The notes below the pieces were generated by a model. It was given only the letters and a program-made list of their open reading frames with translations. It was not told the origin of the DNA and ran no database searches. Below, in pieces: positions 17,735 to 41,602 of a DNA stretch of 41,602 nt (within the stretch, counting starts at the first letter, position 1; every line of letters begins with the position of its first letter). The stretch is from an uncultured Puniceicoccaceae bacterium (GTDB taxonomy: Bacteria > Verrucomicrobiota > Verrucomicrobiia > Opitutales > Puniceicoccaceae): positions 1 through 41,602 of the forward strand of contig CAZDRT010000001.1 of assembly GCA_964507815.1 (NCBI GenBank), given 5' to 3'. Position numbers and translations under genes: made by a program.

Positions 17735-17957
17735 GGCTTTTAGGAAGAAAAGGACGGCCAAGCTCACGCCACTTTCAAATCGGTAGAATCAGACCAGTTT
17801 CAGGCTGGCCGCGACAGAAACGACCACCCTGCAAATTCTTCAGGATCTGGAAGAAGCCGACATCCAACTCATCCCCCCGGCAAGGTGGATCCAGCGCGAA
17901 GGCGACGATCAGGCCTCTGAACAAAAAAAGAGTCCGGGAACAGGTTCGTTGGAAGGG

Positions 17958-18019
17958 GTTGGAGTCCCGCATTCATGCGGTCCCTTGCGGAATCAGGGGA
18001 CTGGCTAAATCCGGGACTT
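17958..18019. repeat. Inverted REP pair (family B) downstream of the RAYT
   Basis: GTTGGAGTCCCGCATTCATGCGGTC plus a degenerate inverted partner; a near-direct repeat of 18773-18842. Confidence 0.85.
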
Positions 18020-18060: not shown

Positions 18061-18660
18061 TCAATCCCAGCCATCACCATAACGGTCGATGGGATAGTCT
18101 TGCCAAAATTGCTTAGCGGCTTCCAGTCCCACTGCCTGCAAGTAGGCTTTTGCACTGGACCAAGGCCAATCCTGCCACCGTCGAACGTAGCCATGTCTGA
18201 CTGGGTTGTGATGGATATAGTTCATCGAGGCAAAAAAATGTCTTTCCGATTTCTGCCGGGTCTCCGCTGATCCGTGAAAGACTTTTCTTCCACTCGTTCT
18301 CTCCTCTTGATTCCAAGTGCGCGACGAGCGACCGTGTAGTTTCCCCAAAACACTCCGGAGTGCCCTTATATCCTCGCAGCTCACTAATGCGTGGTAATGG
18401 TTGGGAAGGATCACATGAGCAAAAATATCGGCACAGTGTGGTTCCAGTGTCTGCAGAAGGGACTCCTCAAAACCACTTAAGCGATCCGTGGAGTGTGCGA
18501 TGTGGTCGGCATGTTCAAAGCAGGAGGCTGTGATCAGAAACCGGTCTACTTGACCATGACTTGTCCATACTGGGGGTCTTCGCCAAGAGCCTCCGCGCTG
18601 CACTCGTTGCCGGAAGACCTCTTCCCGCTGGGATTCTGTCATCTTGCGCCACGCATACAT
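18061..18660 (-). CDS. REP-associated tyrosine transposase (RAYT/TnpA-REP, Y1 HUH superfamily)
   Basis: HUH motif VILPNHYH, catalytic NYIHHNPVRHG and WPWSS; 199 aa from ATG 18660; REPs on both sides. Confidence 0.92.
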   Translation of the reverse strand: MYAWRKMTESQREEVFRQRVQRGGSWRRPPVWTSHGQVDRFLITASCFEHADHIAHSTDRLSGFEESLLQTLEPHCADIFAHVILPNHYHALVSCEDIRALRSVLGKLHGRSSRTWNQEERTSGRKVFHGSAETRQKSERHFFASMNYIHHNPVRHGYVRRWQDWPWSSAKAYLQAVGLEAAKQFWQDYPIDRYGDGWD

Positions 18661-18725
18661 TGGGTTGATGTTCGGACTCAGGACAGGAAGGGTCAAGGCT
18701 TGAGGCGGAGTCTCATAGGTGAAGG

Positions 18726-18842
18726 GACCGCCTGAAGGCGGAACTCCAACAGGGATCCCTGCGCGTGAAGGGGTTGGAGTCCCGCGTTTACGCGGTCCCT
18801 TGCGGCGAAATCGGGGGGACCGGCTAAAGCTGGGACTCCAAC
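18726..18842. repeat. Three alternating family-B REPs upstream of the RAYT
   Basis: Copies at 18726-18750 (-), 18773-18797 (+) and 18818-18842 (-); each is a GTTGGAG head plus a short GC palindrome. Confidence 0.9.
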
Positions 18843-18880
18843 GGGGAAGACGAACCAATTCCGAATTCCTCCGTTCACTC

Positions 18881-22485: not shown

Positions 22486-22547
22486 TCTCTCTTCCGTGAC
22501 TGCCTCCTGGAATCACGGAAGGCCTCCAAAGTAGCCGGGTTGCTTCA
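22486..22547 (+). repeat. Direct repeat unit 1 (hairpin plus GTAG REP head), downstream of the NTPase
   Basis: TCTCTCTTCCGTGAC...TCACGGAAGG...GTAGCCGGGTTGCTTCA matches 24365-24427. Confidence 0.8.
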
Positions 22548-22639
22548 GCGCCCGGTTTTCGCATTGGAAGGAAATGTTCCGGATCGCCTCAGAGGTGCCG
22601 ATTCGCTTTGGACCGGGGTTGTCTAAGACCGACAGGCTG

Positions 22640-24364: not shown

Positions 24365-24427
24365 TCTCTCTTCTGTGACTATCCGCTGGAATGACGGAAG
24401 GTCTTCCTCCGTAGCCGGGTTGCTTCA
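24365..24427 (+). repeat. Direct repeat unit 2, abutting the right terminal motif
   Basis: TCTCTCTTCTGTGAC...TGACGGAAGG...GTAGCCGGGTTGCTTCA; the last 17 nt are identical to unit 1. Confidence 0.8.
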
Positions 24428-27284: not shown

Positions 27285-29503
27285 GCGAGAGCCGGACGGT
27301 CGATCTCATCCACGTGAAGTGGTTTCTCGGGCAGGCGCTCGCCCTCCTCTCCCTCTGGACGGTCGCCGGGCTCGATCTCGCGCGCGGGCCCGTCCTTGTC
27401 GCGGTCTTTGCGGTGACGGCCGCCGTCACGCTGTTTCCGGGACTCCCGGGCCGCATCCGTCCGCCTTTCCGGCGTTTGGCCGCGCCGCTTCTTGTTGTCG
27501 TATTCCTCGTCGATCTGGTGTCCGCCGGCCGGGACATCATCCCCCCCATGGTCCGGCTCCTCCTCGTTCTCCTGGCCATCCGGGTGGCCTCCCACCGCTC
27601 CAACCGCGAGGATCTGCAGTTGATCCTTCTGGCGATGTTCCTTTCGGTCGTCTCGGGGGTCTTCACCCTCTCGATGCTTTTCGCCGTCCAGGCCTTCCTT
27701 TTCGCGCTTTTCGCGATCGGGCTGCTGTACGTGGTCAACCTGCTCGAGTCGTCCGGGGAAAAGGGCGGGGAATCCGAAGACTGGGCGGAATTCACCTGGA
27801 AGGAATTCCTCGGCTACGCGCGGCGATCCTTTCACCCCGGCATGATCCGCTCGCTCGCCCTCCTCTTCGTTCTCCTGGTCGGCACGACGGGGATCCTCTT
27901 CGTGGCCATCCCGCGCGTCCATCTGGACCAGGCGGTCCCTTTCCTGCGCCTTCCCCAGGCCGGACTCAGCGGGTTCAGCGACGTGGTCCGCTTCGGCGAC
28001 GTGACCCGGATTCAGGAAGACGACGGGATCGCCATGCAGGTCGATGTGCCGGATATCGAATCCCTCCCCGACGACCCTTACTGGCGGATGCTCGTCCTGG
28101 ACCGCTATGAGAAAGGGGCCTTCATCAGCAGCCTCTTCGGCTCCGGGGACGGCGAACGCTCCTCCCGTCCGGTGCATACCCTCTCGCCGTTTCCGGATGA
28201 CTGGTTCGCGGACCCGGGCCGGGGCGACGGGTCCTGGACCTTTTATCTGGAACCGGGCGTCAGCCGCTATCTGCCGATCCTCGGTCCGTTCGCGGAGATC
28301 CGGTTCCAGGGCCGCCAGCCCTTCCGGTCGGATCCACAGATCCTGGTCTTCAGCATCCCGCGCGCCTCCGGATCGGTCTTTTCCTACCAGGTGCGGGACT
28401 TCCGGTTCGGGGCCAGCGTGCCCGCGAGCGGACTGGACGAGCCGCTCCTGACTTTGGATCGCGCCGCCACGGTGGAGGAGGCGAACGCCTACCCGCTGAC
28501 CACACTCGGCCTGCCCTTCGAGGCCGGGGACCGGGAATTCCTCCGGGGGCTCACGGCGGAGATTCTGGGAGAGACGCGGGAACGGACCCCGGTCGAGATG
28601 GCGGGCGAGATCGCCGCCTACCTGCGGAGCCGCCACTCCTACAGCCTCTCGCCGGGGAGCTTCGGGGGGGGGGATCCGATCATCCAATGGCTGGAGAGCG
28701 AACGCTCCGGACACTGCGAGTTGTTCGCGGGCGCCTTCGCGGTGCTCGCCCGCACGGCGGGTATCCCGACCCGGATGGTCGTCGGGTTCAACGGCGGGTC
28801 GTGGAATTCCTACGAGGACTACTTTGTGGTCCGCAACCGCAACGCCCACGCCTGGTGCGAGATTTTCGACGGCAACGCGTGGGTACGCTTCGATCCCACT
28901 CCCGGCGGCTCGGGCAGCGGGCCCGGCGGCGACTTTTCCGGATCGGAAGTCGGCTTTCTCCGGGAGGCCGGATTCCAGGCCTGGATCGACAGCCTGCGGG
29001 TCATGTGGTACCGGCGGGTCATCAACTTCGACGACGCCTCGCAGGAGGAATTCGTCGAGGGAGTATCGACGGCCTTCCAGCGGATGGGAAAAGACCTGCG
29101 GGGATGGATCGGCGATATGGGAGATACGGTGGCCGCGAGCGCGAAGAAATATTGGCGGATCCTCGCGGGCACCCCGCTCTCCTGGATTCCGGTGGTTTTT
29201 CTTCTCGCGGGCGGCTTCCTGTTGATCCGCTGGCTGGGACGGCACCCCGGCTCTCTCTGGAGCAGGGCTTCCCGCAAATCCCTCCACCCCCTCCGACGCC
29301 GGGCCGCCCGCGAGTTGCGCCGTCTCGATTCGATCACTGCGTCGGACGCGTTTTCGGAAGAGGAGGCTCTCCGCGACGAACTGAGGCAGCGCCTCCTCGC
29401 CGTCCGCTTTGGAAGAAATCCCGAACCGTCCGAAGCCTTCCGCCTTTTCCGCCGCACCCGCCGTTTCACCCGCGGTCGGAAGAGCGCGCGTTCCGCGAGG
29501 TAG
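27281..29503 (+). CDS. DUF3488/transglutaminase-like membrane protein (TgpA-like)
   Basis: N-terminal TMs, YWR..VLD.Y, GHCELFA, GIPTRMVVGF.GG, AHAWCE and WVRFDPTP (Cys-His-Asp triad). Confidence 0.92.
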   Translation: MSESRTVDLIHVKWFLGQALALLSLWTVAGLDLARGPVLVAVFAVTAAVTLFPGLPGRIRPPFRRLAAPLLVVVFLVDLVSAGRDIIPPMVRLLLVLLAIRVASHRSNREDLQLILLAMFLSVVSGVFTLSMLFAVQAFLFALFAIGLLYVVNLLESSGEKGGESEDWAEFTWKEFLGYARRSFHPGMIRSLALLFVLLVGTTGILFVAIPRVHLDQAVPFLRLPQAGLSGFSDVVRFGDVTRIQEDDGIAMQVDVPDIESLPDDPYWRMLVLDRYEKGAFISSLFGSGDGERSSRPVHTLSPFPDDWFADPGRGDGSWTFYLEPGVSRYLPILGPFAEIRFQGRQPFRSDPQILVFSIPRASGSVFSYQVRDFRFGASVPASGLDEPLLTLDRAATVEEANAYPLTTLGLPFEAGDREFLRGLTAEILGETRERTPVEMAGEIAAYLRSRHSYSLSPGSFGGGDPIIQWLESERSGHCELFAGAFAVLARTAGIPTRMVVGFNGGSWNSYEDYFVVRNRNAHAWCEIFDGNAWVRFDPTPGGSGSGPGGDFSGSEVGFLREAGFQAWIDSLRVMWYRRVINFDDASQEEFVEGVSTAFQRMGKDLRGWIGDMGDTVAASAKKYWRILAGTPLSWIPVVFLLAGGFLLIRWLGRHPGSLWSRASRKSLHPLRRRAARELRRLDSITASDAFSEEEALRDELRQRLLAVRFGRNPEPSEAFRLFRRTRRFTRGRKSARSAR

Positions 29504-29589
29504 AGGAGCAGCGAAAGCCGTTTCCGCAAGGTAGAGGAACGGCGAAAGCCGTTTCCGCAAGGTAGAGGAACGGCGAAAGCCGTTTCTAC
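29491..29589 (+). repeat. Three tandem 31-bp GTAG-headed hairpin units (family E)
   Basis: GTAGAGGAACGGCGAAAGCCGTTTCCGCAAG at 29500 (variant), 29531 and 29562; GAAA-loop hairpin; the array ends in CTAC; no spacers. Confidence 0.92.
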
Positions 29590-33766: not shown

Positions 33767-33816
33767 CCGGTTTTCCGGTTCCCGGTTTTCGGTCTCCAGT
33801 TTACCAGTTTCCGGTT
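33767..33816 (+). repeat. Degenerate ~7-mer tandem repeat (TCCGGTT-like)
   Basis: CCGGTTTTCCGGTTCCCGGTTTTCGGTCTCCAGTTTACCAGTTTCCGGTT lies between the mlaD stop and the MITE left end. Confidence 0.7.
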
Positions 33817-34201
33817 GGAGGTAACCGCAACTGCGTGGAGAAAAATCGTAAAACATCGCTGTTTTGAAATGGGCCGATATTCCATCGGTTGAGGGAGGGC
33901 GGCTGCCGTGCCACGGCGTGGCAGTGTCTCGAGTCGGTTGCTATCAGCGGATGGGACTGGGGGCAAACACTGGACGAAAAGAAGTTTTGCGAAGACGGGT
34001 CCTCAGCCGCCGCATTGCGGGAAAGAGAATGGAAAGCCACGGAATAAATTCGGCGGCGCGGGCATCTTCCGGAAGTGCATCGGATCCCCCTCCGACGTAT
34101 CGCGGCGGCTGGGGACAGCCGCCCTCCCGCCGTAGTTCGGCGGCGTACGCACTATTATCGAAAAATTTTGATATTCCCTCCTCGCACTTGTGGTTACACC
34201 C
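33817..34201 (+). mobile_element. 385-bp MITE-like composite element (full copy)
   Basis: Ends GGAGGTAACCGCAACTGCGTGGAG and CTCCTCGCACTTGTGGTTACACCC are imperfect inverted repeats. The interior has a split REP (33893-33905 and 34000-34012) and an inverted intact REP (34103-34128). Four related copies occur in the window. Confidence 0.88.
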
Positions 34202-40204: not shown

Positions 40205-40405
40205 GGGTGTAACCACAAGCGCGTGGAGGGAAATTGAAAGGCGCGGAATAGATTCGGCGGCGCGGGAATCTTTCGGAAGTGCATTGGATCTTTTCCGACG
40301 TATCGCGGCGGCTGAGGACAGCCGCCCTCCCGCCGTAGTTCGTCGGCTCATGCACAATTATCCGATCAATTTCGGTATTCCCTCCACGCACTTGTGGTCA
40401 CACCC
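40205..40405 (+). mobile_element. 201-bp MITE-like element with 28-bp terminal inverted repeats
   Basis: GGGTGTAACCACAAGCGCGTGGAGGGAA versus the reverse complement of 40378-40405 (26/28). The interior corresponds to the right half of 33817-34201 with one intact REP (40306-40331). Confidence 0.92.
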
Positions 40406-40974: not shown

Positions 40975-41291
40975 GAAAATCGCACGATTTCATCGATTTT
41001 GGAATGGGATCCTATTTCTCGGCTGAGGGAGGGCGGCTGCCGTGCCACGGCGGAGCAAGATCTCCAGTCGGTTGCTGTCAGCGGGATTTGACTGGGGGGC
41101 GGCCACAGAACAATACGAAGTTTTGCGAAGACGGGTCCTCAGCCGCCGCATTGCGGGTAAGAGATTGGAAAGGCACGGAATAAATTCGGCGGCGCGGGAA
41201 TCTTCCGGAAGTGCATCGGATCTTTTCCGACGTATCGCGCGGCGGCTGAGGACAGCCGCCCTCCCGCCGCCACCCACTTGTGGTTACCTCC
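40975..41291 (+). mobile_element. Copy of the composite MITE-like element without a clear left end
   Basis: Matches 33840-34130; split REP at 41027-41039 and 41136-41148; intact REP at 41240-41265; right end CACTTGTGGTTACCTCC. Confidence 0.85.
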
Positions 41292-41453: not shown

Positions 41454-41602
41454 GGAAAATCGGAAAGCATCGCGATTTTGAAATGGGAGGTTATTCCATC
41501 GGTTGAGGGAGGGCGGCTGCCGTGCCACGGCGAAGCATTGTCTCCAGTGGACTGCTTTCAGCGGGCTGAGACTGCGTAATTGGGCGGCCAAAGTGGGTGG
41601 GT
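41454..41602 (+). repeat. Partial, diverged copy of the composite element (runs to the window edge)
   Basis: CATCGCGATTTTGAAATGGG..ATTCCATCGGTTGAGGGAGGGCGGCTGCCGTGCCACGGCG matches 33854-33918. Confidence 0.85.

Follow-up and report, generated by a model that had tools for sequence, protein, structure and literature searches.

A four-layer nest of a terminal-repeat MITE, a REP doublet, a hairpin frame and AG-bounded cargo in an uncultured Puniceicoccaceae bacterium

Bacterial MITEs of DDE insertion sequences (IS4- or IS256-like) have terminal inverted repeats of ∼24 bp, a 9-bp target duplication and several non-coding interior types. Cyanobacterial small dispersed repeats (SDRs) are 20–35 nt long and insert precisely in a short motif. 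Those described by Elhai in 2008 are reportedly nested in their own copies, in mini-transposons and in 7-mer repeats, and are said to share a structure. SDR5 is 21 nt long and inserts precisely inside HIP1 (accessible parts of PMC4390886 and PMC13756078). In the REPIN/BIME system, REPs form inverted, tagged doublets and the RAYT gene is flanked by the same REP (together a REPtron); the junctions lie at CT, and insertion occurs in or beside other REPINs (accessible parts of Bertels and Rainey 2011, PMC3116915; Corneloup 2021, PMC8266576; Messing 2012, PMC3479197). According to the available text of the latter two, TnpA-REP cuts single-stranded DNA at CT, 5' or 3' of the REP and at variable distance, and performs strand transfer (PMC8266576, PMC3479197). 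No more than two guide bases are exposed in the structure of the E. coli TnpA-REP, although a Marinomonas enzyme makes use of one more. ISPpu9, an IS110 element with A'B' modules, has an AG core at both ends, a REP-associated target, and modules that occur solo or in tandem (accessible text of PMC12288879). Finally, the large-loop GTAG-14 and CGTC-1 REPs of Bradyrhizobium carry self-complementary extra loop sequence; in the accessible text of Di Nocera 2013 (PMC3733652), these count as loop variants of up to 27 bp and are not set apart as mobile DNA, and that survey left out repeats whose loops were unusual.

The locus reported here lies in a window of 41,602 nt. The window is contig C1 of the genome under study (G000), a 3.62-Mb assembly of 62% GC in 372 contigs, the shortest being 1524 bp; other contigs of G000 are given C-numbers, and G001, G002 and G006 are relatives. 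The locus is a four-layer nest: a terminal-repeat MITE (T) encloses a REP doublet, which holds a hairpin frame (X), which in turn holds AG-bounded cargo. It is flanked by a MlaD-domain gene and enolase, and the unit is highly repeated, with 412 BLAST pieces across the genome. On the forward strand, a degenerate copy of the T left terminal inverted repeat (33817–33840) is followed by a subterminal segment of the left type (33841–33893; a cluster of 77 ends). The left REP starts at 33894–33905 with a GTAG-like tag (33894–33897) and the 5' stem arm proper (33898–33905), and is then interrupted by the left arm of X (33906–33921; leader, stem and first CGWAG motif, with one substitution here), by the cargo S1 (33922–33989), which is probably a diverged, internally deleted relative of an element that we call M, and by the right arm of X (33990–33999; second CGWAG motif and 3' stem strand). 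The REP resumes with its loop and 3' stem arm at 34000–34011. After the doublet spacer (34012–34103), which has homologues in G002 and G006, the reverse strand carries the intact right REP (34104–34127; hairpin z = −3.3) and the T right terminal inverted repeat (34178–34201).

The first-pass annotation of this DNA had described terminal repeats starting at 33817 and ending at 34201, and a left REP split at its stem-loop boundary in three copies of the window. Both descriptions were confirmed, as were the boundaries of the 94-nt insert (33906–33999) between the 5' stem arm and the loop plus 3' arm; the other two X+S1 inserts, of 96 nt each, also lie in left REPs, at 36–131 on the reverse and 41040–41135 on the forward strand. 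The nesting that it proposed is real, but its three layers are four, since the cargo is separate from the frame. A fourth copy had been placed near 41520. There, the first 16 nt (X left arm, 41520–41535) and the start of the cargo are indeed shared, but the rest is the 5' part of the longer element M, cut by the contig end (41520–41602, forward strand). The window also holds a T element at 40205–40405 with the spacer and an intact right REP and without a left REP (internal deletion), the 3' half of an M outside any doublet of the studied REP (22489–22596, reverse strand) and an M 3' end joined to a T end (24368–24427, reverse strand).

The layers depart from their described counterparts in several ways. 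Unlike the known MITEs, T was found without an autonomous partner, and its interiors are largely REP doublets. The studied doublet differs from REPtron doublets in that a DDE-type MITE carries it and a further element splits it. M differs from them in that its ends are fixed, its preferred target spans 5 nt, its AG runs stutter and one site is empty at the level of strains. Whereas ISPpu9 targets the REP itself, the cargo targets the CGWAG of X or unique DNA; it also carries RAYT-type REPs and has variable end runs, and no IS110 gene was found here. X shares with SDRs its size and its precise insertion in a short motif, and is also nested in its own copies, in mini-transposons and in 7-mer repeats, traits ascribed to SDRs. 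In contrast to SDRs, it occurs in many non-cyanobacterial phyla, targets the loops of hairpins, REP loops among them, and has DNA-type C(GNA)G inner loops.

The 24-nt end of T has 400 matches in the genome, with several interior types. An exact 9-bp target duplication was observed in 8 of the 44 complete T copies, and a duplication with at most 2 mismatches in 12 of 44 (mean in shuffled controls, 0.4); the other lengths tested (6–11 bp) gave at most 1 exact match. T is non-coding and multi-copy, and has terminal inverted repeats and a fixed-length 9-bp target duplication. It is an additional member of the known MITE class. Its 9-bp duplications are the mark of a DDE transposase. The T copy under study (33817–34201) lacks a target duplication. 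Two other runs connect window base 33816 to the opposite strand of the T right end; in other strains, T is therefore either inverted at this site or different. Among 151 genomes of the order, only G000 and G006 showed the T end pattern, and in G006 T encloses a different REP pair; the pattern also matched one metagenome contig, in which a lone end was seen by eye in the 700 bases inspected. No autonomous IS sharing the T ends was found in G000, in the 151 genomes of the order or in the metagenome contigs searched, and a profile search of G000 gave no DDE_Tnp_1 or Mutator transposase. A T copy with cargo on C81 carries the target duplication, so spread as a unit did occur.

A degenerate 7–8-nt tandem repeat (33769–33816) abuts the T left end in the window and shows a 6-nt length difference in run X4. 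Short tandem repeats of this sort also surround X copies on C91, C95, C154, C255 and C311. At G000:C115:8008–8217 and C109:10278–10488, T is inserted in other REP-like repeats with perfect 9-bp duplications; nesting therefore also runs in the opposite direction.

The REP layer shows a tetranucleotide tag 5' of a GC-rich hairpin, inverted doublets and many intergenic copies, and is an additional member of the known REPIN kind; its tag is a GTAG variant with G as the second base. As expected of a REPIN RAYT, an intact RAYT gene (C93:7319–7795) lies between intact, unsplit doublets of the studied REP. This gene scored 81.6 bits with NF047646 (cut-off 80) and has the HUH and Tyr motifs; RAYT-like genes are numerous, with 28 matches. 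The doublet is unsplit and without T in G002 and G001, and G006 has degenerate copies.

We followed both halves of the REP through the genome. The split is no chance arrangement. The 5' half has 324 matches, of which 104 belong to intact REPs, 98 run into the left end of the insert, 117 are followed by other sequence and 5 reach contig ends; the 3' half has 175 matches (98 intact, 61 after the right end of the insert, 14 other and 2 at ends). A single insertion before the composite spread had been proposed earlier, which does not agree with the counts. The left-type REPs of G000 (n = 77) comprise 31 intact, 37 with S1, 2 with S2, 2 with M alone and 5 others, and the right-type REPs comprise 59 intact, 12 with S2, 3 with S1 and 5 others. 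The right REP is thus split too, mostly by a different subfamily (Fisher p about 1e-7, a value overstated because the copies are related), and the cargo differs among copies. As different insert subfamilies occupy the left and right REPs, the split was not a single event before the spread. Unsplit doublets are frequent. With strands merged by hand, 9 doublets have both REPs intact (3 of them at the RAYT), 25 have one split, 3 have both split and 4 are unclassed. Besides the intact left REPs, a composite with an unsplit doublet, which the first-pass annotation had suggested looking for, was found as a complete T with a perfect 9-bp duplication at G000:C51:17807–18098.

Several RAYT-like genes of other kinds were also observed. 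One in the window (18061–18858, reverse strand; NF047646 72.8 bits, under the cut-off) is flanked by its own, different REP family, with repeats at 17952–17990 and 18722–18846. A long ORF at G000:C240:2258–5242 (forward strand, L004), DNA methyltransferase-like by eye, contains, in the same frame, a RAYT domain with translated REP copies on its borders. An expanded family of long Y1 (RAYT-like) genes occupies about 30 loci of G000 (e.g. C239:3816–4709), its proteins mostly about 90% identical. No REPs flank this family consistently, and it was tied to none of the layers. Its members often lie at contig ends, and its C88 copy is interrupted by M at the target motif.

Frame X, of 20–35 nt, consists of a short 5' leader, a terminal stem, two facing CGWAG motifs and an inner mini-hairpin. 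Empty frames measure 19–20 nt and filled ones about 33 nt, and the contents range from none (2 copies) through hairpins of 14–23 nt up to 252 nt. At least four further REP families of G000, and one of G006, are interrupted by frames related to X, and the point of interruption is always in the loop or next to it. The terminal stem pairs at 4/4 positions in 35 of 43 copies (one of the positions being fixed by the search), and 99.3% of the stem cells are paired in a 23-copy alignment, against 17–43% in slid controls. One stem position in the studied REP (n = 35) is C-G in 19 copies (S1), A-T in 12 (S2), mismatched in 3 and other in 1; this S1/S2 difference is one inherited compensatory change and not many events. 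Reading the first and last four bases of the insert as mini inverted repeats was rejected, as S2 breaks that pairing and the shifted stem is kept.

Two CGDAG motifs around a short hairpin make up 181 units in the genome, compared to 59 in the reversed genome. Among the inner triloops of these units, 59 of 103 are GNA, compared to 5 of 35 when the genome is reversed. Each of the four bases occurs at the middle position, and a C(TT)G loop was seen in 26 units. GNA triloops alone form a very stable DNA mini-hairpin, the tested RNA counterpart being much weaker (accessible text of PMC13037366), which points to X folding as single-stranded DNA.

One 21-nt core of X gave at least 123 hits across phyla, from which 80 stretches were fetched; the hosts include Bradyrhizobium, Verrucomicrobia, Patescibacteria and Acidobacteriota. 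The flanks of this core, which were no part of the search, pair with each other to a value that 0 of 2000 shuffles reach. Twenty-eight of 43 cross-phylum copies with a CYTG-type leader rebuild a CGN-AG host, mostly the loops of GTAG- or CGTC-type REPs. Targeting of CGN-AG hairpin loops would explain the self-nested X arrays of G000. In its size and its precise insertion in a short motif, X resembles the SDRs. It splits GTAG- and CGTC-type REPs in Bradyrhizobium and overlaps with the large REP loops given in Di Nocera 2013; the openly accessible text that we searched held no account of X that presents it as mobile DNA residing in the loops of REPs. The junctions of X follow no single CT rule across all hosts. 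No gene could be linked to it: 335 ORFs near 80 loci gave no cluster covering more than 2 loci, Pfam applied to 60 of 153 X-flanking frames (those outside Bradyrhizobium-type loci) gave no transposase and no recurring mobile family, and a comparison of the ORFs between paired X copies in G000 showed nothing consistent. At L143–L146, in several genomes, X copies adjoin a sequence resembling a tRNA 3' end (by eye) and an HNH-like ORF.

After the first CGWAG of X, we observed S1, S2, M (224 nt), mini-M (about 55 nt) or a module of ∼70 nt, all AG-joined. These modules are interchangeable and occur alone or in tandem, and tandem modules share one AG. The insert had been annotated as a single element of 94–96 bp, with conserved ends and a variable middle. 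Instead, the 38 closed copies among 112 left junctions span 94–376 nt, and the ends belong to a tiny frame and the middle to separately mobile cargo. The whole 94–96-nt unit was seen nowhere outside the studied REP family, but the frame type and the M cargo were. S1 starts like M and holds the 3' motif of M; it probably combines a decayed mini-M with what is left of the inner unit of X.

Among REPINs, M is a variant distinguished by its sharp ends and by having a target. It carries an inverted pair of GTRG-tagged REPs, and the same REP type flanks a RAYT gene at C140:3905–4411 (NF047646 77.3 bits, just below the cut-off of 80), the association that marks a REPIN. Its ends are fixed, about 40–55 nt outside the REPs. 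The M-type REP is common in 6 of 7 congeners, all without M ends. On C140, about 5 kb with the M-type-REP RAYT are present twice and seemingly identical, possibly by assembly duplication; C91 also has mirrored duplicates.

On the strand read, M has AG at both ends, which is CT on the REP-bearing strand. A script that sought AG within 3 nt, and thus favoured AG, located 125 module starts. The X of the studied REP accounts for 81 of them and other X frames for 6; a further 22 come directly behind another module, 4 are at contig ends and 12 lie in unique DNA. Among these 12, 7 follow the W = T form of the motif, compared to 1.6% of genomic AG sites, and 3 are without an AG junction. The right ends of M (n = 51) show 11 different AG/AAG run lengths; where the flank is paralogous (n = 42), a majority rule places the junction with the host at AG in 28 cases but not in the other 14, several of which are noisy matches. 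Five 5'-truncated M copies begin just past an internal AG. All these counts overstate the number of independent events, because copies within a genome are related. The modules share a dinucleotide core without a longer duplication, as IS110 modules do. A bridge RNA would specify the target on both sides of such a core. Here, the 5' side of the target is conserved; the 3' flanks vary, a variation confounded by possible mis-joins, as a fragmented assembly can mis-join flanks across M.

A filled and an empty allele were observed on C222, where runs X2–X4 pass without M, whereas run X1, possibly the source, has M; the X2 allele reads the target motif at the junction. The flanks of this M sit 1.4 kb apart in G006, and hence two M copies recombined or were collapsed in the assembly. 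Empty sites rebuilt by excising M from genes, in which open frames appeared, were not kept as evidence: the C222 flanks come from two sites, and those of C291 resemble two different genes, with no flank homologue in 7 congeners. At G000:C222:1321–2114, M lies where a cysteinyl-tRNA synthetase-like gene (by eye) is shorter than in G006; the gene has a 69%-identical paralogue on C3, and the shortening is a real deletion or an assembly collapse.

We think it rather probable that the cargo of the four-layer nest reached it as single-stranded DNA, a RAYT having cut and rejoined strands at CT. T would have been moved by a DDE transposase, as its 9-bp duplications indicate, and the REP doublet would be tied to the C93 RAYT that its REP is observed to flank. 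X occupies loops of further short hairpins, its own kind among them, and may have moved there itself; an HUH enzyme is our best guess for its mover. X provides CGWAG, the preferred target of the 224-nt REPIN-like M and its putative deletion derivatives (mini-M, S1 and S2). Both junctions of M are CT on the strand on which its 3' REP begins with the tag, and on this strand the target sequence complements that tag; from this we infer that a RAYT excises and inserts M. That a RAYT acts on M is likely, and slippage among neighbouring CT sites would give the AG/AAG stutters. Repeated insertion, excision and use of neighbouring CTs would likewise produce tandem cargo, stutters and truncations at internal AG. 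Against the RAYT model, two-base microhomology alone could yield truncations at AG, and two guide bases exposed in E. coli TnpA-REP do not explain a 5-nt target. The absence of a single CT rule at X junctions and of a recurrent gene beside X, the script that favoured AG, the relatedness of the copies, the possible mis-joins across M and the similar AG-core insertion of ISPpu9 modules into REPs also weigh against it. The likely order is that T captured the doublet, X entered each REP at least once and the cargo loaded repeatedly, with T and the doublet amplifying throughout. In this reading, the layers are selfish DNA accumulating in intergenic safe havens, and a host function is not needed.

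The main rival to delivery by a RAYT is that M, mini-M and the S modules are non-autonomous IS110-family modules, joined at their AG core by a bridge recombinase as in ISPpu9. ISPpu9 recombines at AG and targets REPs, its modules move separately, and its mutants use nearby AGs (accessible text of PMC12288879). The single AG shared by tandem modules in G000 fits this reading, IS110 genes are present in 2 of 5 congeners, and the assembly, whose contig floor is 1.5 kb, could lack a shorter IS of many copies that had collapsed. We nevertheless regard it as unlikely, because PF01548 and PF02371 had no match in G000 while the positive controls matched, none was found in G006, the sole relative found sharing T and X, no long element with M ends occurs among the left junctions, and M itself bears a REP doublet matching a RAYT locus. 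The model of the first-pass annotation, in which one element of 94–96 nt entered the REP once and a three-layer composite then spread, is improbable, and contradicted in this form, given that two subfamilies occupy two different REPs, that inserts of 94 to 376 nt hold interchangeable modules, that relatives of the frame are empty or have contents of 14–23 nt in other REPs, and that M is found in unique DNA. In its favour, the 3' end of S1 was seen only ahead of the studied REP's loop, the most frequent complete doublet has the left REP alone split, and a cargo-bearing T may carry the target duplication, as on C81. A weaker form is likely, in which T or the doublet carried X+S1 along as a passenger and so amplified it.

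For cyanobacterial SDRs, a route through RNA and a reverse transcriptase has reportedly been proposed, and X with its cargo might move in the same way. G-T pairs are tolerated on one strand of the stems, the internal loop of CGWAG/CGWAG is similar to the tandem sheared G-A motifs of RNA, and the one-sided target at the junction is like the IBS sites of group II introns, all of which count for such a route. We hold it very improbable, since the inner loops are GNA triloops, which are favoured in DNA, the 385-nt unit has no Rfam match, and the sole reverse transcriptase match in G000 belongs to a truncated group II intron remnant. This remnant (G000:C82:13430–14180, L047) has a partial RT and a 3' end that is domain V–VI-like by eye, and is interrupted by a T/REP/X/M composite. 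We also give almost no credence to the view that the 385-nt unit as a whole forms a single structured RNA, non-coding, or is one repeat that serves the host. High copy number and conserved ends would suit it, but the insert folds like its shuffles (z from −0.6 to +1.2 as DNA and from −0.9 to +0.3 as RNA), the covariation term of RNAalifold is only −0.86 kcal/mol, and the unit was not found in 120 other genomes of the order. Each layer was found without the others, and this independent occurrence of the parts largely refutes the single-RNA reading.

Returning to the nest with RAYT-delivered cargo, what element M contributes is a pair of fixed ends and a short motif as its target, together with a candidate RAYT encoded in its own genome, stutters that may be a record of successive rounds of cutting and rejoining, and filled and empty alleles among wild strains; these features make REPIN mobility testable. 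X suggests a tiny, widespread element in REP hairpin loops across phyla that has hitherto been read as loop variation. If mobile, it would be among the smallest mobile DNAs and would point to an enzyme recognising DNA mini-hairpins. Only tentatively, and with more doubt than confidence, do we propose the fuller reading: X may represent an unrecognised cross-phylum class of 20–35-nt single-stranded-DNA elements that aim at mini-hairpin loops and parasitise REPINs. Each copy would plant a landing pad for a fixed-end, RAYT-driven REPIN whose target complements the REP's own tag, and this REPIN would have been caught moving between strains, with a guide-directed choice beyond two bases.

Elsewhere in the window, three tandem units of 31 nt (29491–29586) lie at the end of a long ORF.
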